From the NCBI GenBank assembly GCA_015056145.1, contig SVGY01000014.1, positions 263 through 64,262 on the forward strand: DNA of 64,000 nt, written 5' to 3'. The stretch is from Clostridiales bacterium (GTDB lineage: Bacteria; Bacillota; Clostridia; Christensenellales; Aristaeellaceae). Position numbers and translations under genes: made by a program. Each line of letters begins with the position of its first letter. Within the stretch, counting starts at the first letter, position 1. Positions 2,211 to 36,294 of this stretch are shown here, piece by piece. The notes under the pieces were generated by a model that saw only the letters and a list, made by a program, of their open reading frames with translations, had not been told where the DNA came from and did no database searches.

Positions 2211-3842
2211 TTACGGAGTCAGAAGCCAGCCCTTTACATACAGTTGGCTGGGTTCGCCACCATAGGAGACCAGCCTCAGCTGGGAGATGCGGAATATCTT
2301 GCCATCCTCCAGCGGAATATCGGAACGGAGAAGGGTTTCGGTATCCCAGTCAACGCTTGCCAGTGCATCTTCCAGCACGAAGAAGGATTTGGCGCTGGTA
2401 TCGGAAAGGGACATCGTTTTATAGCGATAGGTAAAATTGAACCATTGGGCATGGCTGAAACCGGCAACCTCCACCGAGTAGTGATCGCAGGGACCGGTAA
2501 TTACGGTTTCTGCTTTTCTGTTTTCGGAAATGGAGTTGTAGCTGAATCCAAACACCAGCTCATAACCGTCGACGATGCCGCTGGAGGGAAACTGTGCCAG
2601 GAATTTTTCGGTAAAGGAGCCCTTGGGCGGATCATCCACATGATACCCCAGATATTCGGCGGAGGAAAGAATGACTCGTTTATGCTGATCGTCCGCATCG
2701 GGATTGGGAACGATTCTGCCGCCTATTTCCAGCATGCCGCACTCCGTCAGGGCGGTTTTCAGCCGGGCTTCCTGACTCCAGCGGGAGACATTGGCCGCAT
2801 TCAGAGGCGTGAGGGTCAAAAGCAGGGTGAGGGCGGCTGCAACAGCAAAAAACCAGCGGGTGGTCTTACCAAAGAAGGAAAGCACCACAACGGCAATCAG
2901 CAGAAGGGTGATTGCCAGTCCGATATACCGTGCAGGGGTAAGTCCATAGGCATCGATGCGGATCCATACACCTACCTGCTGTGCGATGATCACCGGTGGC
3001 AAAAGCAAAGCTCCCCAGCGGCAGAACCAGCGGCTGAGGGGGGATTCCTCTCCGGTAAGGGTCAGGCGCAAAAGGGTGAAAAAGCTGAGAGCAGCCAAAG
3101 CAAACCAATTCATCTGTCCTACGGGCATTTCCCATTTGATGATGATGGTGGCGATGTAGATCAGCAGAATGCCCGTGAGCAAAAGGAAGGCGGGCAGGAG
3201 CAAATTGGCGGTGAATTTGCGGAAGGCGCTGCGTTTTTCCGGGGGAGTGGATTCATCAGGCATGCGGCCCAAAAAGAGGAGGGGCGCAACAAGAAACATG
3301 GAAAAATAAAAGGCGGAGGAGTTGAGCTTGCTTTGAAGCCGTGCGGCGTTACGGAAAAACAGCAGCGAAAAGGCAGAGGAGCAGAATACCAGCAGTATGA
3401 AAAGGCAGAGTGCCAGACCGCCGCTGCTGAAGAAGGCACCGGCAATCTGCCCGAAACGTTCTTCCCGGTGTGTTTTTCCCACGGCCAGATGGACGCACAG
3501 GAAGGCTGCTGCAAGGCACATTCCGGTGTACGCCGAATGCAAATCCCGCAGCAGATAACCAAGCAGACATCCCGCGGCGGCTGTCGCCCAGGGAAGCCAG
3601 CCGTGCCGGGAGCATTTTTTCGTGATCAGGCTGCCCAGCACAGCAAAGAGGATTCCCGGAAAAAAGGCGGCGAGGACATTTGAAAATATAGCGTCAAGAG
3701 TGACGCTGCTTGTGGCGGCGGTCATGCCGAGAAACAGCGTAAAGCAAAGAATGCACGCCGAGGGAAACGTGCAGAAAAGGTTTTTCAGGAAAGCGGGGAT
3801 TGAGGTGTGCGTTTTCACAGAACGCTCATTCACAAGGATCAT
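2211..3842 (-). CDS. polytopic membrane protein with soluble C-terminal domain (DUF4153-like, unverified)
   Basis: 543-aa ORF. About 10 or more hydrophobic helices are followed by a ~190-aa non-hydrophobic C-terminus. The overlapping + strand ORF 2190..3683 is low-complexity. Confidence 0.6.
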   Translation of the reverse strand: MILVNERSVKTHTSIPAFLKNLFCTFPSACILCFTLFLGMTAATSSVTLDAIFSNVLAAFFPGILFAVLGSLITKKCSRHGWLPWATAAAGCLLGYLLRDLHSAYTGMCLAAAFLCVHLAVGKTHREERFGQIAGAFFSSGGLALCLFILLVFCSSAFSLLFFRNAARLQSKLNSSAFYFSMFLVAPLLFLGRMPDESTPPEKRSAFRKFTANLLLPAFLLLTGILLIYIATIIIKWEMPVGQMNWFALAALSFFTLLRLTLTGEESPLSRWFCRWGALLLPPVIIAQQVGVWIRIDAYGLTPARYIGLAITLLLIAVVVLSFFGKTTRWFFAVAAALTLLLTLTPLNAANVSRWSQEARLKTALTECGMLEIGGRIVPNPDADDQHKRVILSSAEYLGYHVDDPPKGSFTEKFLAQFPSSGIVDGYELVFGFSYNSISENRKAETVITGPCDHYSVEVAGFSHAQWFNFTYRYKTMSLSDTSAKSFFVLEDALASVDWDTETLLRSDIPLEDGKIFRISQLRLVSYGGEPSQLYVKGWLLTP

Positions 3843-4890: not shown

Positions 4891-5739
4891 TTATTGCTGC
4901 ACCTCCTTTGTGCGGGTCAACCGCAGCTGCAACAGGGCGATGCCTGTAACGATCAGAGCAAAAACCACCGCCTTGGCCTGCCCTGCACCTTCCCAGCCGC
5001 TGCGGCCGTAAAAGGTGTTGAAGATGTTCAGCGCCAGCAGCTCCGATCGGGAGGAGGGAGCACCGTTGGTCAGGGCCAGGTTCTGGTCGAAAAGCTTGAA
5101 TCCGCCGGTGAGGGTCAGAAAGGTGCAGATGGTAATGGAGGGCATCAGCATGGGCAGCTTTACCCGGAGAAAGGTCTGCCAGCCGGAGGCACCGTCGATG
5201 GAGGCGGCTTCTGTCAGCTCCTCGGGTATGGCATTGAGACCGGAAATGTAGATGATCATCATGTAGCCTGCCTGCTGCCACAGCATCAGGATCAGCAGCC
5301 CGGCAAACCCGTACCATTCATTGGTCACAAGGGTTTTGCCGTAGCGCATCAGGGCTCCGTTGAGGATCACCTGCCACAGCCAGCCCAGCACGATGCCGCC
5401 GATGAGGTTGGGCATGAAAAACACGGTGCGGAACAGATTGGAGCCCCGGATGCCCCGCACCAGGCACACCGCTAGGGTCAGACCCACCAGATTGATAATA
5501 ACGGTGGACACCAGGGCAAACAGAGCAGTGTAGCCCATGGAGTGCAGAAAATTGCTGCCGGGGTCTGAAAAGGCACGGATGTAGTTTTCAAAGCCTGTAA
5601 AGGTGGCATCCGATACTGTGGTAAAGCGGCAAAAGGACAGATACAGGCCCATGCCGAAGGGTAAAAGAAAGCCTACGATAAAGGCCAGCACAGTCGGCAG
5701 CACAAACAGCGGCCAATATCGTTTAATGGCGTGCTCCAC
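4891..5739 (-). CDS. carbohydrate ABC transporter permease (MalF/UgpA-like)
   Basis: 282 aa. EAA loop present (EAASIDGASGWQTFLRVKLP). It abuts the downstream permease with a 1-nt gap. Confidence 0.88.
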   Translation of the reverse strand: MEHAIKRYWPLFVLPTVLAFIVGFLLPFGMGLYLSFCRFTTVSDATFTGFENYIRAFSDPGSNFLHSMGYTALFALVSTVIINLVGLTLAVCLVRGIRGSNLFRTVFFMPNLIGGIVLGWLWQVILNGALMRYGKTLVTNEWYGFAGLLILMLWQQAGYMMIIYISGLNAIPEELTEAASIDGASGWQTFLRVKLPMLMPSITICTFLTLTGGFKLFDQNLALTNGAPSSRSELLALNIFNTFYGRSGWEGAGQAKAVVFALIVTGIALLQLRLTRTKEVQQ

Positions 5740-5774
5740 TTTTTCATCTCCCTGTCCGACTTATGCGGTATGAT

Positions 5775-7121
5775 TTACGGGTTTGCGGCTCCGTATTCCC
5801 TGGCCCAGCCATCCACAAAGACAGTGCGGACGTTTTCCCAGCTGCCGGTACCCTGAGCATATTCCAGCAGGGCTGCGCCCACGCCATCCTTCCAGGTATC
5901 GGAGGGCATGGTGGGAAAATTCCAGCTGACGGATTCCTTCCCTTCGGCAATATACCTGGCGGCATCGTCCAGAAGGGCGTTGGAGGCGGTGTAGCCAGCG
6001 TCGAAGGTTTTGAAAGGGGTCACGAATCCCATTTGGTTAGCCAGCATATCCCGGCCTGTATCGCTGGTGATGACCCATTCAAGAAAGGCTTTTGTGGCCT
6101 CGATGTTTTCGGCGGAGGCACGTTTGTTGATGCACCAGTAGTTTTCCGAACCGGTGCACAGGCCCTGGTTTTCCTCGCCCTCTGCGCCGATGTAGATGGG
6201 CAGCATGCCCAGCTGCTCATCCCGCATTCCGCCGCTGATGAGCTCGTCATAGGCCCAGGTGCCGTTCTGGTAAAACACGGCCTCGCCAAGGATGAACTCG
6301 CTGGAAGCATCGTCGCCGGTTTTTGCGCCAATGAGGGAGGGCGGACAGGTGGCGTTGTTGATGTACAGATCCCAGATGGCCTTGTAGCGGTCCAGATAGG
6401 TGCCTTTGATGGCCTCGGTCATGCCGATGCCGTCCTGTTTGTATTCGTAGTAAACGGGCAGGTTTGCCAGATGAGTCTTGAAGCGCCAGTCGGAGCTGGA
6501 ATCCATGCCGGCTGAAGTGAAGGCGCCCAGCACCCCCAGTTCTTCCCGGCGTGCCTGGATATCCTCCGCAATCCGTTTGAGGCTGTCAAAGTCCGTAATA
6601 TCAGCGGCAGTGTAGCCCGCTTTGTGCAAAAGCTCCTTGTTATAAATGAGGCCGTAGGTCTCGATAACGTATGCCACCGCCAATACCTGACCATCCTCCT
6701 TCAGGGCGAAGTCGTCGCTTTTCAGGTTGGCATAGATGGCGGTGTCCGTCAGATCCAGGCAGAAACCTTTCCACGTTTTCAACCCCACAGGCCCGTTGAC
6801 CTGAAACAGCGTGGGAGCATCCGGCTTTTCTATTTCAGAACGCAGGGTATCCTCGTAGGTGCCGGAGGCGGCGGTGCGCACAGTAACGGGCACACCGGTT
6901 TCGGCGGTGTAGATACGGGCCAGCTCCTCCCACTGCCGGGCCTGTTCGGGCTTGAAGTTGAGGTAGTAAACCGTTCCAGCGCCTTGCGGCTTGCTGCCGG
7001 GAGTGGAGTTTTCGTTAGTGGTGGCGGGCGGCGTGGGCGCTTTTTCCTCTCTTGCAGCAAAGATGGCAATAACGCCCAGAATCAGCGCCAGCGCAGCCGC
7101 AACGGCCAGTATTTTCTTCAT
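5775..7121 (-). CDS. extracellular solute-binding protein of a sugar ABC transporter
   Basis: 448 aa. N-terminal hydrophobic signal/anchor, followed by a family-1 SBP-like sequence. It is the first gene of the three-gene operon. No ATPase gene is present in the operon. Confidence 0.85.
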   Translation of the reverse strand: MKKILAVAAALALILGVIAIFAAREEKAPTPPATTNENSTPGSKPQGAGTVYYLNFKPEQARQWEELARIYTAETGVPVTVRTAASGTYEDTLRSEIEKPDAPTLFQVNGPVGLKTWKGFCLDLTDTAIYANLKSDDFALKEDGQVLAVAYVIETYGLIYNKELLHKAGYTAADITDFDSLKRIAEDIQARREELGVLGAFTSAGMDSSSDWRFKTHLANLPVYYEYKQDGIGMTEAIKGTYLDRYKAIWDLYINNATCPPSLIGAKTGDDASSEFILGEAVFYQNGTWAYDELISGGMRDEQLGMLPIYIGAEGEENQGLCTGSENYWCINKRASAENIEATKAFLEWVITSDTGRDMLANQMGFVTPFKTFDAGYTASNALLDDAARYIAEGKESVSWNFPTMPSDTWKDGVGAALLEYAQGTGSWENVRTVFVDGWAREYGAANP

Positions 7122-7327: not shown

Positions 7328-7370
7328 ACAAAAAATAAAAAAACCTGCTGCATTGCTATGCAGCAGGTTA
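7328..7370 (-). terminator. distal copy of the duplicated mreB terminator hairpin, the copy that retains the T-tract
   Basis: Hairpin AACCTGCTGC-ATTGCTAT-GCAGCAGGTT at 7342-7369. On the minus strand it is followed by a T-run (plus-strand A-run 7330-7341). The 30-bp block 7341-7370 is identical to 7535-7564. Confidence 0.8.
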
Positions 7371-7534
7371 CTGGCTGTCAAAAAATGCGCAGGGTGCAGG
7401 GGGATCATCCCCCTGCCGGGTGTGGGCAGAGCCCACATTCCTTGTGCCGCAGCGCTTTCAAGAAAGCACAGCGAGCACCGAAGGTGCAAGATTTGCGGCT
7501 TTGACTGACAAGAATGAGGTTTTTCCACAAGCTG
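7371..7534 (-). mobile_element. 164-bp non-coding MITE-like repeat element, copy 1
   Basis: Its reverse complement matches 35379-35542 at 162/164 positions (aligned by eye). The ends form imperfect inverted repeats (10-11 of 15). It is flanked by a 30-bp direct duplication of the local terminator hairpin. Confidence 0.8.
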
Positions 7535-7564
7535 AAACCTGCTGCATTGCTATGCAGCAGGTTA
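7535..7564 (-). repeat. proximal copy of the duplicated mreB terminator hairpin, lacking a T-tract
   Basis: AAACCTGCTGCATTGCTATGCAGCAGGTTA is identical to 7341-7370. On the minus strand it is followed directly by the element, not by a T-run. Confidence 0.85.
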
Positions 7565-7588: not shown

Positions 7589-8620
7589 TTACCCCCGGCC
7601 CAGGACCCTCTTGCGGCCGTCGTCCAGATAACGTCCCAGGTCGGACATGTTTTCCAGGGCTCGTCCGCAGCCGACCACCACATTGTACTGGGGATCGTCG
7701 GCTATGGTGCAGGGTACCTTCAGCGCATCGGCAATGGCTTCGCAAAGACCGAAAAGCTTTGCACCGCCGCCGGAAAGAAGGATGCCGTATTCAAAAATGT
7801 CGGCAGCCAGTTCCGCAGGGGTGTTTTCCAGAACGCCGTGAATGCCCTCGATGAGCTGCTGGAGCGGATCGTCCAGGGCCTCGGTGATGTCGTCGCTGGA
7901 AATGCGCATGGTCTTGGGCAGGCCGGTGATCAGATTGCGTCCCGTCACTTCCCGGTAGGTCTGCACGGAGCGGGGAATGGCGGAACCGATATCGATCTTC
8001 AGTGCCTCGGCGGTACGCTCGCCGATGAAAAGGTTGTGCTTGCGGCGCAGGTGGCGGATAATGGCATCGTCAAAACGGTCGCCGCCTACATTGATGCAGC
8101 TGTTTACCAGCACCTTGCCGTAGGAAAGCACGGCGATATCGGTAACGCCTGCGCTCACATCCACGATCATGGTGCCGTAGCCTTCGTCGATATCAAGCCC
8201 GGCGCCAAGCGCAGCAGCCAGGGAACGGTTCAGAAGCTGGGTGCGGCGCATGCCTGCATCAAACATGGTGGAGATCAGGGAACGGCGCTCTACCTCGTTT
8301 ACGTTGGTGGGCACGGACAGAATGGCCCGGGGACGGGCAAACATGTGCTTGCCAATGGTCTTGGACAAAAAGCCTTTGAGCATAAAGCTGACCAGCTCGA
8401 AGTCGGAAATGGCGCCTTCCCTGAGGGGATGGATGGCCAGGATGTTGCTGGGCGTGCGGCCGACCATGCGGGCAGCTTCGTCGCCGATGGCCAGGATGTT
8501 CTGGGTATCCCGGTTTACCACCACAACAGCGGCTTCGTTGAGCACAATGCCCTTTTCCTTCATATAGATCAGTACCCGGGACGAGCCCAGATCGATGCCG
8601 ATATCATTGACGCTTGCCAT
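7589..8620 (-). CDS. mreB: rod-shape determining actin homologue MreB/Mbl
   Basis: 343 aa. It carries the motifs IGIDLGSS, EPLAAALGAG-like (NRSLAAALGAG), VDVSAGVTDIAV and LLSGGGAKL. It lies directly downstream of spoIIID, like mbl in Bacillus. Confidence 0.92.
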   Translation of the reverse strand: MASVNDIGIDLGSSRVLIYMKEKGIVLNEAAVVVVNRDTQNILAIGDEAARMVGRTPSNILAIHPLREGAISDFELVSFMLKGFLSKTIGKHMFARPRAILSVPTNVNEVERRSLISTMFDAGMRRTQLLNRSLAAALGAGLDIDEGYGTMIVDVSAGVTDIAVLSYGKVLVNSCINVGGDRFDDAIIRHLRRKHNLFIGERTAEALKIDIGSAIPRSVQTYREVTGRNLITGLPKTMRISSDDITEALDDPLQQLIEGIHGVLENTPAELAADIFEYGILLSGGGAKLFGLCEAIADALKVPCTIADDPQYNVVVGCGRALENMSDLGRYLDDGRKRVLGRG

Positions 8621-18223: not shown

Positions 18224-21200
18224 TTGAACGATTTCTATCGGAATCAGCCCGATCCCAACGAGTTCTACGGCGCACAGGACGATTACGCCCAGCAGGATCA
18301 GTGGAACCCTTCCGGATATCCGGAAGAATACGTTCCCGGCGGCTTTGCAGGCACCGGCCCCGTGGAGGAAGATCCCTTCTCTGCATGGCGCAGGCCTGCA
18401 GATACCGGCATTGACGGCGGATATCTGGGCGAGGAATCCCTGATGATGGGCGCAGAGATGCACAGTGCTGCCCAGCCCTTTTATCAGGCAGAGGCTGCCG
18501 CAGATTTTCGCAGCCAGGGCGATGCGCCCACCCGTGTGAGTCAGCCTGTACAGATGGTATCCAAGCGGGTATCTCAGCAGGCGGAACCCCAGGTATCTTA
18601 TGCACAGCCCGTTCAGGAGCAGCCTTATGCCGCTGCCCCCGCCGCCGCTGCACCGGCAGAGACCGCTCCGCAGGAGGCAGCAGCTCCCCGTCGCCGCAGC
18701 CGTCGTATGGAACGCCGGGAAGCTGCGGATGTGCCTCAGGCCGCACCTGTCAGCAATCAACCGGAGATGGGCTATGATCCTTATCAGGCTCCCCGTGAGC
18801 AGGCAGCGCCTGTTCAGCAGCCTGTCCGCCAGGAATATCCCCGCAGAAGCGCCCCTGCAAGCAGCCAGCCGGAGATGGGCTATGATCCCTATCAGGCATC
18901 CCGTGAGCAGGCTGCGCCCGTTCAGCGTCCCGCTGCCAGAGAGTATCCCCGCCGCAGCGCCCCCGTAAACGCTCAGCCAGAAAGGGACTACGATTCCTAC
19001 CAGGCTCCCCGTGAGCAGGCCATGCCCGTACCCCAGCCCGCTCATCAGGAGTATCCCCGCAGAAATATGGCCGTAAGCCGCATGCCCGAAAACGAGTACG
19101 ACGGTTACGACGCATATGATGCACCTGTGGCAGATCCCCGTTACGAAACCCCCGTGGAGGAGCCCCGTCAGGCGCCCCGCAGGGAATACCGTCAGGCTGC
19201 CCCCGGAGACAATTATTCCGGCCCCCGCACCGCTATGCCCACGCAGAACCGTGGCTCTGTTGCAGACCGTGCCCGGGAAGTGCGTGACGAAGTAAGGAAC
19301 GCTCCCCAGGAAGAGATGAACGCTGCTCAGCGCAGACCCATGCCCCCTCAGGGCGGCGAAGCGCCTCAGCGTCGGCCCATGCCTCAGCGGCCTGTGCCTC
19401 AGGGTCAGGCTCTTCAGGGCGGCATGCCTCAGCGCCGGCCCGTGCCTCAGGGTGAAATGCCCTACGGCCAGGAAGAACAGCAGGGTTACGGTCAGGAGCA
19501 ATACGGCTATGGTCGTCGTCCCAGCCCCTATAACCGTGGCGAAAACGACCGCAGCGCATCCGTAAACCGCAAACCCTACGATTTTGAAAACGACGATCAG
19601 GATGAGGAACCCCGCCGCGGCAGCGTATTGCTGGCTATCGTCATTGTACTGCTGGTCATCGGCGGCCTTCTGGCCGGTCTCTGCCTGCCTGACTGGGCAA
19701 GCATCGGCGGCCCCGTGGGCAATACCCTTGCCCCTGCCAAGGAGGCTGTGGTGAATACCTTCACTACCCTCAAAAATAAGATCAAGCCCGAAGAAGAGAT
19801 GATCCGCAGCTTCACTGCCAACTGCTCCGATGCAGAGGCGCCCGCCACGGTGAAGTTTTCCGTGCAGACGGCCAAGAATGTTGCCGGTATCCGCATTGTG
19901 GATGATAATAACAATGAGCTCTATTCCGCCCTCTACACCGACGAGATGGCCCTTTCCGGCGATGTGATGGTAAACAGCAACGCCCTTATCTGGATGCCCT
20001 CCTGCGTGATTGAGGAAGAATACACCGGTGGTTTCACCGTTTACGCCATTCGCAAGGACGGCAGCACCGACGAGGGCACCCCCACTGCCGAGCAGGTGAC
20101 CATCGCCCCCAAGGCAGAGGAAGCACTGCCCATGCAGGGCTTTACAACCAGCGCCGAAAGCGGCGAGATTCCTGCAGAAATCACCTTTACCGTGACCACC
20201 TCCGCTGACGTTTCCGCTGTGCGGGTGGTGGATCAGTACGAATCCCCTGTGGCTACCAGCAACATCGATGCAGCCACCCTGGACGGCACCATGACCCAGG
20301 ACGGCGACAAGCGCATCTGGACGCTCCGTGTTACGGTGGATAACATCTACAGCGGTACCTACCGTGCCCAGTATCAGGCTGCGGATGATCTCAATTTTGT
20401 CAGCAGCGAATACACGGTTCCCGCTTCCTTTATGCCCCCCGTTGCCACGGAAGTGCCGCCGGAGGAGACCCCCGTGCCCCTGAACGAGGGTGAAGAGGAC
20501 CCCGTCGCCACCGAAGAGCCCGAGGAAACCGCAACTCCCGAGCCTACGGCGACCCCCACCCCCGAACCTACCGCCACCCCGGAACCCACCCCCACGCCCA
20601 CTCCGGCCCCTGATGCTACCGCAATGCCGGAAGTGGATGCCGCAGCCGCCGGCAGCGCAGATCCTGCTGCGCTGAACCTGAAAACCGTTACCAACAATAA
20701 CGGCAAGAGCGCCAGCAACTTCAGCCGCAGTGGCGAAAAAGCCATTTCTATGGTGACTCCCTTCACCAGTAAGACATCCAGCGACAACTATGCTGTGTGG
20801 AAGCAGGCTGGTGTGCTTACCTTCCGCAGCGGCCCCATGCGTCAGAATGCTTCCTTCGGCACTGTTGAGGTGGAGGAAGGCAAGCTGAGCGTTCTGTGGA
20901 GCCAGCCCGTTGGTTCCATGAAGGCCAAGGAGAGTACCCTCTATGGTGTGGTGGCTCCCGGTCAGCCCCTGATCATCAAATGGCCTACCGAAATGCGTAC
21001 CGACTATCTGGGCCTGAAGGATGAAGCCCGCCAGGTTACTGCCCTGAAGGAAGTAATCATCTCCGGTCAGGACGGCAAGATTTATTTCTACAACCTGCTG
21101 GACGGCACTATGACCCGTGAACCCATTGATATCGGCGCTCCCAGCGCAGGCGGTCTTTCCCTTGCCACCAATGGCACCCCGGTGCTGGGCGTGGGCCAGA

Positions 21201-33245: not shown

Positions 33246-34691
33246 ATGGCAAAGCAGGAAAAAAAGCAGGGGTTTGTAGAGCATATCACACCCCGTGACG
33301 TGGACTTTTCTCAGTGGTATACCGACGTAATTCTCCAGAGCCAGCTGGTGGACTATGCTCCCGTGCGTGGCTGCATGATTATCCGTCCCTACGGCTTCGC
33401 CCTGTGGGAGCGCATTAAGGAAGTGCTGGACAAGCGCTTCAAGGCCACCGGCCATGAAAACGTATATATGCCCATGCTGATCCCGGAAAGCCTTCTTTTG
33501 AAGGAAGCGGAGCATGTGGAAGGCTTCGCCCCCGAAGTGGCCTGGGTTACCCATGGCGGCAGCGAAAAGCTGCAGGAACGCCTTGCAGTGCGGCCCACCA
33601 GCGAGACCATTTTCTGCGCCATGTACTCCAAGTGGGTGGAGTCTTGGCGTGACCTGCCCATGAAGTACAACCAGTGGTGCAGCGTTATGCGCTGGGAAAA
33701 GAGCACCCGCCCCTTCCTGCGCACCAGCGAGTTCCTCTGGCAGGAAGGCCATACCATTCATGCCACTGCTGAAGAGGCTCAGGAAGAAACCATGCAGATG
33801 CTGGAAGTGTACCGTGACGTGGCTGAAAACGAGCTGGCCATGCCTGTGCTGGTGGGCAAGAAGAGCGACAAGGAAAAGTTTGCCGGCGCACGGGCTACCT
33901 ACTCCATGGAAGCCATGATGCAGGACGGTAAGGCTCTGCAGGCCGGTACCAGCCACAACTTCGGCACCAATTTTGCTGAAGCCTACGATATCCAGTACCT
34001 CAACAAGGAAGGCAAGCTGACTTACGTTCACGAAACCAGCTGGGGCGTATCCACCCGTTTGATCGGCGCCATCATCATGACCCACGGCGACGAGCGTGGC
34101 CTGAAACTGCCGCCCCATGTGGCACCCATTCAGGCTGTTATCGTTCCCGTTGCTGCCCATAAGGGCGGAGTCATGGAAAAGGCCGAGGAGATCCGTGCTC
34201 AGCTGGAAGCCGCCGGTATCCGTGTAAAGCTGGATGACCGTGATACCCTGAGCCCCGGCTTCAAGTTCAATGACTGGGAACTGAAGGGCGTGCCCGTCCG
34301 TATTGAGATCGGCCCCCGTGATGTGGAAAACGGCAAGTGCGTTGTATTCCGCCGTGACACTTATGAAAAGCAGGATGTGGCCCTGACTGATCTGGCCGCT
34401 GCTATCCCCGAGCTGCTTGAAAATATCCAGCAGACCATGTACAAACTGGCTGCGGACTTCCGTCAGGAACGCATCAGCGATGTAAACAACATGGAAGAAC
34501 TGGCCAAGGTGGTGGACGGTGGCTTTGCCCGTGCAATGTGGTGCGGCGACCGTGCCTGCGAGGACAAGATCAAGGAAATGACCGGCGCAACCAGTCGCAA
34601 CATGCCCTTTGACCAGACCGCTATCGGAGATACCTGCGTATGCTGCGGCAAGAAGGCTGATAAGCTGATCTACTTTGCCAAGGCCTATTGA
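33246..34691 (+). CDS. proS: proline--tRNA ligase (short, archaeal/eukaryote-like type)
   Basis: 481 aa. Class II aaRS motifs and C-terminal zinc-binding CVCCGKKA. Family-wide collinearity. Confidence 0.9.
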   Translation: MAKQEKKQGFVEHITPRDVDFSQWYTDVILQSQLVDYAPVRGCMIIRPYGFALWERIKEVLDKRFKATGHENVYMPMLIPESLLLKEAEHVEGFAPEVAWVTHGGSEKLQERLAVRPTSETIFCAMYSKWVESWRDLPMKYNQWCSVMRWEKSTRPFLRTSEFLWQEGHTIHATAEEAQEETMQMLEVYRDVAENELAMPVLVGKKSDKEKFAGARATYSMEAMMQDGKALQAGTSHNFGTNFAEAYDIQYLNKEGKLTYVHETSWGVSTRLIGAIIMTHGDERGLKLPPHVAPIQAVIVPVAAHKGGVMEKAEEIRAQLEAAGIRVKLDDRDTLSPGFKFNDWELKGVPVRIEIGPRDVENGKCVVFRRDTYEKQDVALTDLAAAIPELLENIQQTMYKLAADFRQERISDVNNMEELAKVVDGGFARAMWCGDRACEDKIKEMTGATSRNMPFDQTAIGDTCVCCGKKADKLIYFAKAY

Positions 34692-35338
34692 TGATGAAGA
34701 TCCGGCAGATTTTCTGGGACTGGAACGGCACGCTGCTGGATGACCTGTGGTATGCCATCGGGGTGAGGAACCGCACGTTCCCTCTCTTTGGCCTGCCTGT
34801 CATTGAAAACCTTGAAGAATACTTCAGTCAGTTCACCTTTCCGGTTCGTGAGTATTACTACCGTGCTGGAGTCACTGAGGAAAATTTCAACGAAGTGGCG
34901 CATGCCTGGATGAATGAATACGTCCGGGGCCAGGAAAGCATTCCCCTGCATAGCGATGCACTGGAAACAATTGCAAGCCTTCGCAAGGGCGGGCTTTCCC
35001 AGGTGGTGCTCAGCGCCAGTCAGATTGAGATCCTCAAGGGGCAACTGGCCCTGTATGGTCTGGAAAACACCTTTGATGACGTGCTGGGCCATGACAATAT
35101 CTATGCCGACAGCAAGGAAATGATCGGCGTGCGCTATATGCAGAAAACCGGATTGACCCCGGAGGAGTGCATGATGATCGGCGATACCCTCCACGATGCG
35201 GATGTGGCCCGTGGCATGGGGATCCGCTGCATATTGGTGGCCAGAGGCCATCAGAGCCGGGAAACGCTGGAAACTGCCGGGGTACCGGTGCTGGGCAGCC
35301 TTCTGGAAGCTGCGGAACTGATATTGAAAACGGAATAA
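34691..35338 (+). CDS. HAD family hydrolase (phosphoglycolate phosphatase-like)
   Basis: Motif I FWDWNGTLLDD and motif IV IGDTLHDADVA. The start overlaps the proS stop. Confidence 0.8.
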   Translation: MMKIRQIFWDWNGTLLDDLWYAIGVRNRTFPLFGLPVIENLEEYFSQFTFPVREYYYRAGVTEENFNEVAHAWMNEYVRGQESIPLHSDALETIASLRKGGLSQVVLSASQIEILKGQLALYGLENTFDDVLGHDNIYADSKEMIGVRYMQKTGLTPEECMMIGDTLHDADVARGMGIRCILVARGHQSRETLETAGVPVLGSLLEAAELILKTE

Positions 35339-35346
35339 AAAGCAAA

Positions 35347-35379
35347 AGACCATGGCAGAAAAAAGTCTGTCATGGTCTC
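35347..35379 (+). repeat. proximal copy of the duplicated terminator hairpin, lacking a T-tract
   Basis: AGACCATGGCAGAAAAAAGTCTGTCATGGTCTC is identical to 35543-35575. It is followed directly by the element. Confidence 0.85.
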
Positions 35380-35542
35380 AGCTTGTCGAAAAACCTCATT
35401 CTTGTCAGTCAAAGCCGCAAATCTTGCACCTTCGGTGCTCGCTGTGCTTTCTTGAAAGTGCTGCGGCACAAGGAATGTGGGCTCTGCCCACACCCGGCAG
35501 GGGGATGATCCCCCTGCACCCTGCGCATTTTTTGACAGCCAG
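35380..35542 (+). mobile_element. MITE-like repeat element, copy 2
   Basis: Near-identical to the reverse complement of 7371-7534 (2 mismatches). No coding capacity. Several internal GC-rich hairpins. Confidence 0.8.
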
Positions 35543-35581
35543 AGACCATGGCAGAAAAAAGTCTGTCATGGTCTCTTTTTG
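35543..35581 (+). terminator. distal copy of the duplicated terminator hairpin, the copy that retains the T-tract
   Basis: 13-bp stem AGACCATGGCAGA / TCTGTCATGGTCT, followed by CTTTTT. Confidence 0.8.
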
Positions 35582-35727: not shown

Positions 35728-36294
35728 TCAGGAAAAATCACCAATTTCTCCAAGAAGCCGGCCGATGCTGTGATACTTGCCGGAGTAGATCACCGGGTCC
35801 AGCTTCGTGAGGTCAACATCGAAGGCGTCGGCACATTGGAGGCCTTCCTCCATCTGCACATTTCTGATTTTGCAGAAGAAGGTGGTGGATTGGCCTGTTG
35901 ATACGGATTGCACTACCTCACATTCATATACCCAGCGGCTCATGTCCAGAACGGGTACATCCACTGCTTTACCTCTGGAAACGGAGTAATCCACCTCATC
36001 CTTGTGCCCCGATGCGGCATGATGGGAGCCGAAGTAGTCCATCAGTGGAAGCATATCGGTGCTCACCAGATTGACGCTGAGCTGCCCGGTGAGAATCACA
36101 TTCTGCTTGGTGTTTTTTTCGCCAAACATGCTGATCACCAGCAAATAGTCGTCATCCTTTTCACAGGTGGCGCTGACCCATGTAATGGGAGCGAAATTGT
36201 GGCTGCCGTCCGGGTTGTTGGTGCCGATGATAAAGGCTGGCTGAACGCACATGGAAAAACAGGGTTTTACGGATTTGCGTCTGACAGAATTCAT
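35728..36294 (-). CDS. flavin reductase family protein
   Basis: 188 aa. The pattern QPAFIIGTNNPDGSHNFAPITW is typical of flavin reductase-like FMN-binding domains. Confidence 0.7.
   Translation of the reverse strand: MNSVRRKSVKPCFSMCVQPAFIIGTNNPDGSHNFAPITWVSATCEKDDDYLLVISMFGEKNTKQNVILTGQLSVNLVSTDMLPLMDYFGSHHAASGHKDEVDYSVSRGKAVDVPVLDMSRWVYECEVVQSVSTGQSTTFFCKIRNVQMEEGLQCADAFDVDLTKLDPVIYSGKYHSIGRLLGEIGDFS

Follow-up and report, generated by a model that had tools for sequence, protein, structure and literature searches.

The terminator of mreB raises an unusual question. Within the 64-kb window (the whole stretch of DNA that was analysed), its hairpin is present twice, on either side of 164 bp of DNA that recur at a distant position, and only one of the two hairpins is followed by a T-tract. 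What is the intervening DNA, and how did an entire stem-loop come to be duplicated around it? The evidence set out below makes it probable that the 164 bp are a MITE of gut Clostridia that targets terminator-type palindromes, duplicates the whole stem-loop and is moved by a transposase acting in trans.

Results

Two copies of a 164-bp element in the window

The 30-mer AAACCTGCTGCATTGCTATGCAGCAGGTTA has two exact occurrences, at 7341–7370 and 7535–7564 (0 matches in 100 shuffles), and the 164 bp between them (7371–7534) agree with positions 35542–35379 on the other strand at 162 of 164 positions (98.8%), the only mismatches lying at element positions 84 and 156. Read along mreB (7589–8620, minus strand), the stop codon is followed by 24 nt, a hairpin without a T-run (7564–7535), the element, an identical hairpin and TTTTTTATTTTTT. 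These coordinates confirm the repeated 30-bp block, the near-exact copy on the other strand and the order of gene, hairpin, element, hairpin and T-run that the first-pass annotation had described. The hairpin has a 12-bp stem (AACCTGCTGCAT/ATGCAGCAGGTT), and the duplicated block includes one extra nucleotide per side. In the copy distal to mreB (7341–7370), it is followed by the T-tract of the mreB terminator (7330–7340; TTTTTTATTTT on the minus strand), which now stands after this copy only, and a simple terminator scan makes a terminator-like call for the distal copy alone. The proximal copy (7535–7564) is followed, on the mreB strand, by the element and no T-run.

Copy 1 of the element lies on the plus strand in the orientation left terminal inverted repeat (TIR), core, right TIR. 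The left TIR (7371–7387) is CTGGCTGTCAAAAAATG; the right TIR (7517–7534) is AGGTTTTTCCACAAGCTG, with the reverse complement CAGCTTGTGGAAAAACCT. Between them lie a conserved double hairpin (7396–7437), made up of GCAGGGGGATCATCCCCCTGC (7396–7416) and TGTGGGCAGAGCCCACA (7421–7437), and a 3′ domain (7444–7496) in which a mini-hairpin, GTGC-CGCA-GCGC (7444–7455), precedes a helix (7466–7496) that encloses a GCGA/AAGA internal loop and the C-GAA-G hairpin GCACCGAAGGTGC. Six other assemblies with an identical MreB display either the same structure at this site or a contig break inside the element; the structure is therefore not an artefact of the assembly of the window.

Copy 2 (35379–35542, minus strand) lies between convergent genes and is flanked by its own, different 32-bp palindrome duplication, AGACCATGGCAGAAAAAAGTCTGTCATGGTCT, which the first-pass annotation had not recorded and which bears out its claim that the duplicated hairpin is locus-specific. 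One copy of this palindrome (35347–35378) adjoins a HAD-type hydrolase gene (34688–35338, plus strand), and the other (35543–35574) stands beside a flavin reductase gene (35728–36294, minus strand) and is followed on the plus strand by CTTTTTG. An empty allele was sought for both window copies, and every strain found either carries the element or has a contig break inside it; at the second site, the contigs of all strains found break inside the element.

Two other repeat arrays were seen in the window, one of three tandem 108-nt repeats with 73–78% identity (18742–19065) and one of three repeats spaced by 57 nt (1150–1300). Both are probably coding repeats.

Whole stem-loops are duplicated at 14 insertions

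Across the loci collected, 14 independent insertions have matched flanks: the two in the window and those in L027, L035, L037, L039, L044, L052, L077, L078, L101, L152, L154 and L170 (L101 is the same locus as L112 and L158 and was counted once). In every case, the two ends of the element adjoin, without intervening nucleotides, direct copies of a palindrome that is specific to the locus. The target-site duplication (TSD) comprises the entire stem-loop from foot to foot, and its length, 16–34 bp, tracks that of the palindrome with no fixed ruler. The joints lie within about 1 nt of the palindrome feet at most sites, and 3–4 nt off one foot in L044 and L170. The idea of an unusually long TSD spanning the whole stem-loop thus holds at all 14 loci; the accompanying proposal, that the element inserts 1–3 nt after the stem, does not, as the joints lie at both feet and the whole palindrome forms the TSD. 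Most TSDs begin with AG and end with CT, which is the sole feature common among the targets, and no primary-sequence consensus is discernible. The two TSD copies differ by one mismatch in 5 of the 14 insertions, which indicates the age of these insertions.

The targets are hairpins at the 3′ ends of genes. In 12 of 13 sites, the stop codon of a long open reading frame (ORF) with high third-position GC lies 7–75 nt from the hairpin, and seven sites are located between convergent genes. Some sites have a T-run after the right hairpin copy, others an A-run before the left copy, and some have both; either orientation of the element relative to the T-tract occurs. Recognition of intrinsic terminators, as first proposed, is therefore borne out in so far as gene-3′ hairpins are hit, but the occurrence of both orientations implies that the palindrome is recognized, and not the terminator as such or the direction of transcription. 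In all intact copies the stem-loop is duplicated, and none shows its deletion or replacement, as by IS1272. A search for tandem hairpins without an element, which could be the footprint of excision and had been named as a sign of independent local duplication, found no case.

In seven further copies from metagenomes, both sides bear a hairpin, but left and right hairpins differ; among these, one left flank pairs with three different right flanks. Such copies may be assembly chimeras across the repeat, or recombinants. Contigs from many independent assemblies end inside the element (L019, L171–L173 and L176), as is expected of a multi-copy repeat.

An orthologous site with a single hairpin

An orthologous site without the element, one of the checks originally suggested for this locus, was found for one locus only, L101, which belongs to a sister subfamily. 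The neighbours of the L101 copy are genes for a uracil/xanthine permease and for a member of the AAT family. In L174 and L175, whose permeases are 98% and 97% identical, the place of insertion is occupied by a single hairpin and no element, and the genes lie about 190 bp closer together than in L101. In L174, this site reads AACGGCATGGCTTCGGCCATGCCGTT followed by the T-run GCTTTTTC, and the downstream DNA is homologous to that of L101. An allele of this kind would be expected for the state before insertion, or for that after precise loss. The presence of one hairpin in the empty allele identifies the flanking repeats as the TSD of a pre-existing terminator hairpin.

The closest relative at the first window site is of another kind. 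In L021, in which MreB is 94% identical, the region downstream of mreB contains the core double hairpin only (3570–3628), with compensatory changes in hairpin 1 (GCAGGAGG…CCTCCTGC; GCAGGAGGCACTGCCTCCTGC), and this double hairpin adjoins a different terminator (CCCCGCCACTTTCGGCGGGG plus a T-run); the 3′ domain and the duplication are absent, and arms are not clearly recognizable. This short form may derive from an older copy by decay or have come to occupy the site independently, and it counts against the main model.

Family, ends and the search for an autonomous partner

A pattern derived from the 3′ part of the element, run once against species-representative genomes, recovered true relatives in three Clostridia MAGs (SIG359, SIG362 and RGIG9011). 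Hairpin 1, used as the query in metagenomes, gave 120 loci, of which many came from human gut and many from one large contig set (Ga0123353/Ga0123354) that we take to be from termite gut; a metagenome scan with the exact 3′ domain gave no match. Full-length copies fall into three subfamilies of 162–164 bp, with the 5′ end CAGRYYGYYGAMAAA and a 3′ end that is its imperfect reverse complement. The TIRs of 15–18 nt match at only about 10–12 of 16 positions, and may resemble the inverted repeat of IS903 (GGCTTTGTTGAATAAATC). ORFs that cross the element are locus-specific read-throughs only, and it has no coding capacity. With 162–164 bp and no transposase gene, it falls within the size range of MITEs in general (below about 300 bp).

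Ends of the same type bound two other small elements with different interiors, at L043 898–1103 (206 bp) and L052 ~3211–3463 (~253 bp), each with a hairpin at its left flank. The interior of the latter contains a further repeat (…GCAAATACAAGGGCTGCGCGCGGCCAGCGCGCAGAACGCCGATATTTGCG…), which is also nested in the L078 copy and present elsewhere in L078. Common ends around different interiors, together with cores that lack arms (see below), imply that the ends are the unit of mobility, and the core a passenger or tolerated structured module.

The longer partner with the same ends that had been anticipated was sought by TIR scans, by searching for palindromic direct repeats 0.8–4 kb apart and by looking for internal segments common to the loci. 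In the window and 1.3 Mb of related loci, these searches yielded neither an autonomous element with these ends nor any unit of IS size between duplicated hairpins. Three candidates, involving a peptidase in L048, a transporter in L091 and a phage protein in L086, were rejected as ordinary genes between identical REP-like hairpins. In L048 (3660/5633; M3 peptidase) and L091 (544/1931; MFS transporter), identical palindromes of 27–30 bp, 1.4–2 kb apart, bracket single genes; these are not insertion sequences, and resemble REP-like hairpins reused as terminators.

The size of the element, its lack of coding capacity and its TIRs point to a non-autonomous status. Together with a locus-specific TSD and presence/absence polymorphism at one locus, size and TIRs make it a MITE in the generic sense, bar a known cognate IS.

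A conserved, widely distributed core

In order, the core consists of an A-rich lead, hairpin 1 (GCAGGGGG-ATCAT-CCCCCTGC), hairpin 2, the mini-hairpin RYGC-CGCA-GCRY and a last helix that encloses the conserved GCGA/AAGA internal loop and a hairpin with a C-GAA-G loop. Among 15 diverse copies, 98.6% of cells are paired, compared with 37–52% when the partners are slid, and 15 of 34 pairs have changes on both sides, compared with 0–3 when slid; the observed covariation score was reached by none of 500 shuffles. The covarying changes are concentrated at subfamily splits and thus represent few independent events, and they are compatible with folding either as RNA or as a DNA strand.

Rfam reports no family at its gathering score anywhere in the 64-kb window or in 20 loci. 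The only match, below threshold, is RF02937 (Clostridiales-2), with 24.2, 22.4 and 21.0 bits against a gathering score of 58.6, and spans the lead and hairpin 1. The model has in common with the core the A-rich lead, a first hairpin of the type GGGGGUGCAGGGG…CCCCUGCCG and a second hairpin thereafter, but lacks the 3′ domain with the C-GAA-G hairpin; given 21–24 bits where 58.6 are needed, membership of this family was rejected.

The core also occurs outside the element. Arm-less cores without duplications directly follow stop codons in L013 and L048, and L035 contains two in tandem (5683–5943, 145-bp period), which lie directly behind a stop codon and ahead of an ordinary terminator. The distribution of the bare double hairpin is very wide: it is present on 14 viral contigs (L001–L014, IMG/VR) and on more than 100 metagenome contigs (L051–L170), often within mosaics of GC-rich hairpins, and a search of a plasmid collection with the element gave one match, a 44-nt double hairpin of 88.6% identity in an unannotated stretch of Candidatus Magnetococcus massalia (NZ_LO017728.1, 17632–17675). 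The widespread motif reads GGTGCAGGGG-N7-CCCCTGCCG followed by a second GC hairpin, and the invariance of the stem sequence across such distant sources suggests that it may have a sequence-specific role. On the Ga0123353/Ga0123354 contigs, the motif forms part of BIME-like mosaics of several different GC-rich hairpins, with up to three copies per 10 kb.

Hairpins of the core are in turn interrupted by other small insertions, in L037 (~1595–1712), L078 (in the copy at 2427–2738), L069, L076, L097, L134 and L168. Insert sizes are ~118 bp where the hairpin 1 loop is hit, ~148 bp for the C-GAA-G hairpin and ~95 bp for the second hairpin, and no insert shows an obvious duplication. It seems that hairpins are attractive to small elements of several kinds.

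Discussion

A proposed mechanism of insertion

The observations are best accommodated by a trans-acting transposase, probably an IS1182/IS5-type DDE enzyme, that would read the palindrome as a structure, whether as an extruded cruciform or as symmetric hairpins. Strand transfer probably takes place at the palindrome's two 5′ feet, which would lie side by side in an extruded cruciform; gap repair would then copy the stem-loop to both sides of the element. At mreB, transcription would be expected to pass the proximal hairpin, to include the element in the 3′ untranslated region (UTR) and to stop at the distal copy, an expectation based on the sequence and on what is known of intrinsic terminators. 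Since it is the distal copy that retains the T-tract, termination in either direction should survive the insertion, with the element in the 3′ UTR, and terminators would for this reason be a safe landing site.

Members of the IS1182 family have direct repeats of 0–60 bp according to ISfinder. IS1272 and TnSha1, which belong to this family, target inverted-repeat stem-loops by structure, mostly terminators just downstream of genes and in both orientations, and delete or replace the stem-loop with no duplication left (PMC5678879, PMC4923244). As quoted in these two papers, a review also states that some IS1182 members target palindromes. The cruciform model for IS1272 (Wan et al.) includes a ‘pathway b’ in which attack at the 5′ feet predicts that the entire stem-loop is duplicated (PMC5678879), and the route proposed here would be exactly this pathway. 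The element thus resembles IS1272/IS1182 in its palindromic terminator targets, chosen by structure without a sequence consensus and entered in either orientation, but differs in that it always duplicates the stem-loop and is a non-coding 164 bp; neither an IS1182-type transposase nor matching IS ends could be linked to it, and two regions of aph(3′)-IIIa plasmids, inspected for an IS1182 copy with which to compare ends, contain none.

With classical MITEs (Correia/NEMIS, RUP, ERIC, Nezha and Chunjie), the element shares small size, TIRs, the lack of a transposase, multiple copies and intergenic location, as well as strong folding and, by its position, presumed co-transcription with neighbours. 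By contrast, their duplications are short and of fixed length (for example, TA), whereas here a whole palindrome of variable length is duplicated. EFAR repeats of Enterococcus may be similar. A literature search for terminator-duplicating elements returned the IS1272 work only, and a 2024 review of prokaryotic MITEs makes no mention of such elements (PMC10969869).

Alternative readings

It is conceivable, although rather unlikely, that the family is not driven by an ordinary IS transposase, and that a structure-reading integrase without a recognizable partner IS attaches DNA to the two feet of whatever palindrome is extruded, a free-living mechanistic counterpart of the way in which CRISPR repeats are duplicated; or else that the conserved core, found across phyla and on viral contigs, helps targeting or is a selected 3′-UTR module spread by the element.

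A single-strand or structure-specific recombinase of the HUH/RAYT or IS110 type, acting in place of a DDE enzyme on hairpins in single-stranded DNA at the replication fork, would suit several observations: it is hairpins that are targeted, C-GAA-G loops, known for very stable DNA mini-hairpins, occur in the core, and the double hairpin has spread like REP/BIME modules in mosaic hairpin clusters. Enzymes of these types make no TSD and do not need TIRs, however, and every intact copy has both; no GTAG/CGTC tag precedes the palindromes, and both orientations occur. We regard such an enzyme as unlikely. The comparison with REP/BIME sequences and RAYT leads to the same distinction, in that GC-rich palindromes in 3′ UTRs and mosaic clusters are common to both, but REPs have the GTAG/CGTC tag and neither TIR nor TSD, and the element has TIRs and a TSD but no tag. 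Unlike the element, with its TIRs and long TSD, the IS200/IS605-derived PATE has subterminal hairpins, no TIR or TSD, and inserts 3′ of a short motif.

The conservation of the core, with compensatory changes in 15 of 34 pairs, the arm-less cores directly after stop codons (L013, L048 and the L035 tandem) and the weak RF02937 match could each be taken to mean that a structured small RNA or 3′-UTR module related to Clostridiales-2 has spread between intergenic regions rich in hairpins, through recombination or gene conversion and without transposition. We consider this distinctly improbable, since it leaves unaccounted for the precise and gap-free way in which every one of 14 sites has its own palindrome duplicated, the TIRs, the 98.8% identity of copies 28 kb apart and the empty site; the Rfam score of 21–24 against a gathering score of 58.6 also speaks against it.

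Insertion between two copies of a pre-existing palindrome of about 30 bp is formally reminiscent of CRISPR spacer integration and of casposons, which likewise have TIRs, so that a Cas1-like integrase of the casposase type might be imagined to join the element at both palindrome borders as Cas1–Cas2 does at the CRISPR repeat. Such an origin for the 16–34-bp duplications is very improbable: casposon duplications have a fixed length of 14–15 bp at specific sites, whereas here the length tracks each palindrome; the element forms no array, no cas1 was noticed near any copy and nothing ties its ends to casposons.

Bacterial class C group II introns also home just after terminator stem-loops, but these ribozymes have an intron-encoded protein (or are ORF-less and longer) and do not duplicate the hairpin, and the intron models in Rfam gave no match to the element. 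The TIRs, the matched duplications, the two orientations and the absence of an intron or reverse transcriptase signature led us to reject group II intron, IS200/IS605-type, REP/RAYT and retroelement readings. Independent local duplication of a hairpin, or an assembly artefact, can be given almost no credence when 14 loci whose hairpins differ, from independent assemblies and collections, all have the same architecture, when no double hairpin without the element was found and when the empty site has one hairpin.

Implications

On the preferred reading, that of a MITE mobilized in trans that duplicates the palindromes it enters, the insertion strategy would be neutral by design: to judge from the arrangement of the sites, the duplicated terminator would keep termination in both directions while the element sits in the 3′ UTR. 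Such an element would match, in nature, the branch of the IS1272 model that leads to duplication, until now drawn but unobserved, and the tracking of target structure by TSD length is direct sequence evidence for structure-directed strand transfer. A structure-specific insertion system of this kind could become a tool once the enzyme is known.

For the genomes concerned, the family breaks MAG assemblies and is a recurrent cause of fragmentation in this lineage, and its tandem terminator copies confuse the annotation of terminators and 3′ UTRs. It may also explain part of the orphan Rfam motif Clostridiales-2 and of the hairpin-rich mosaics in gut bacteria.
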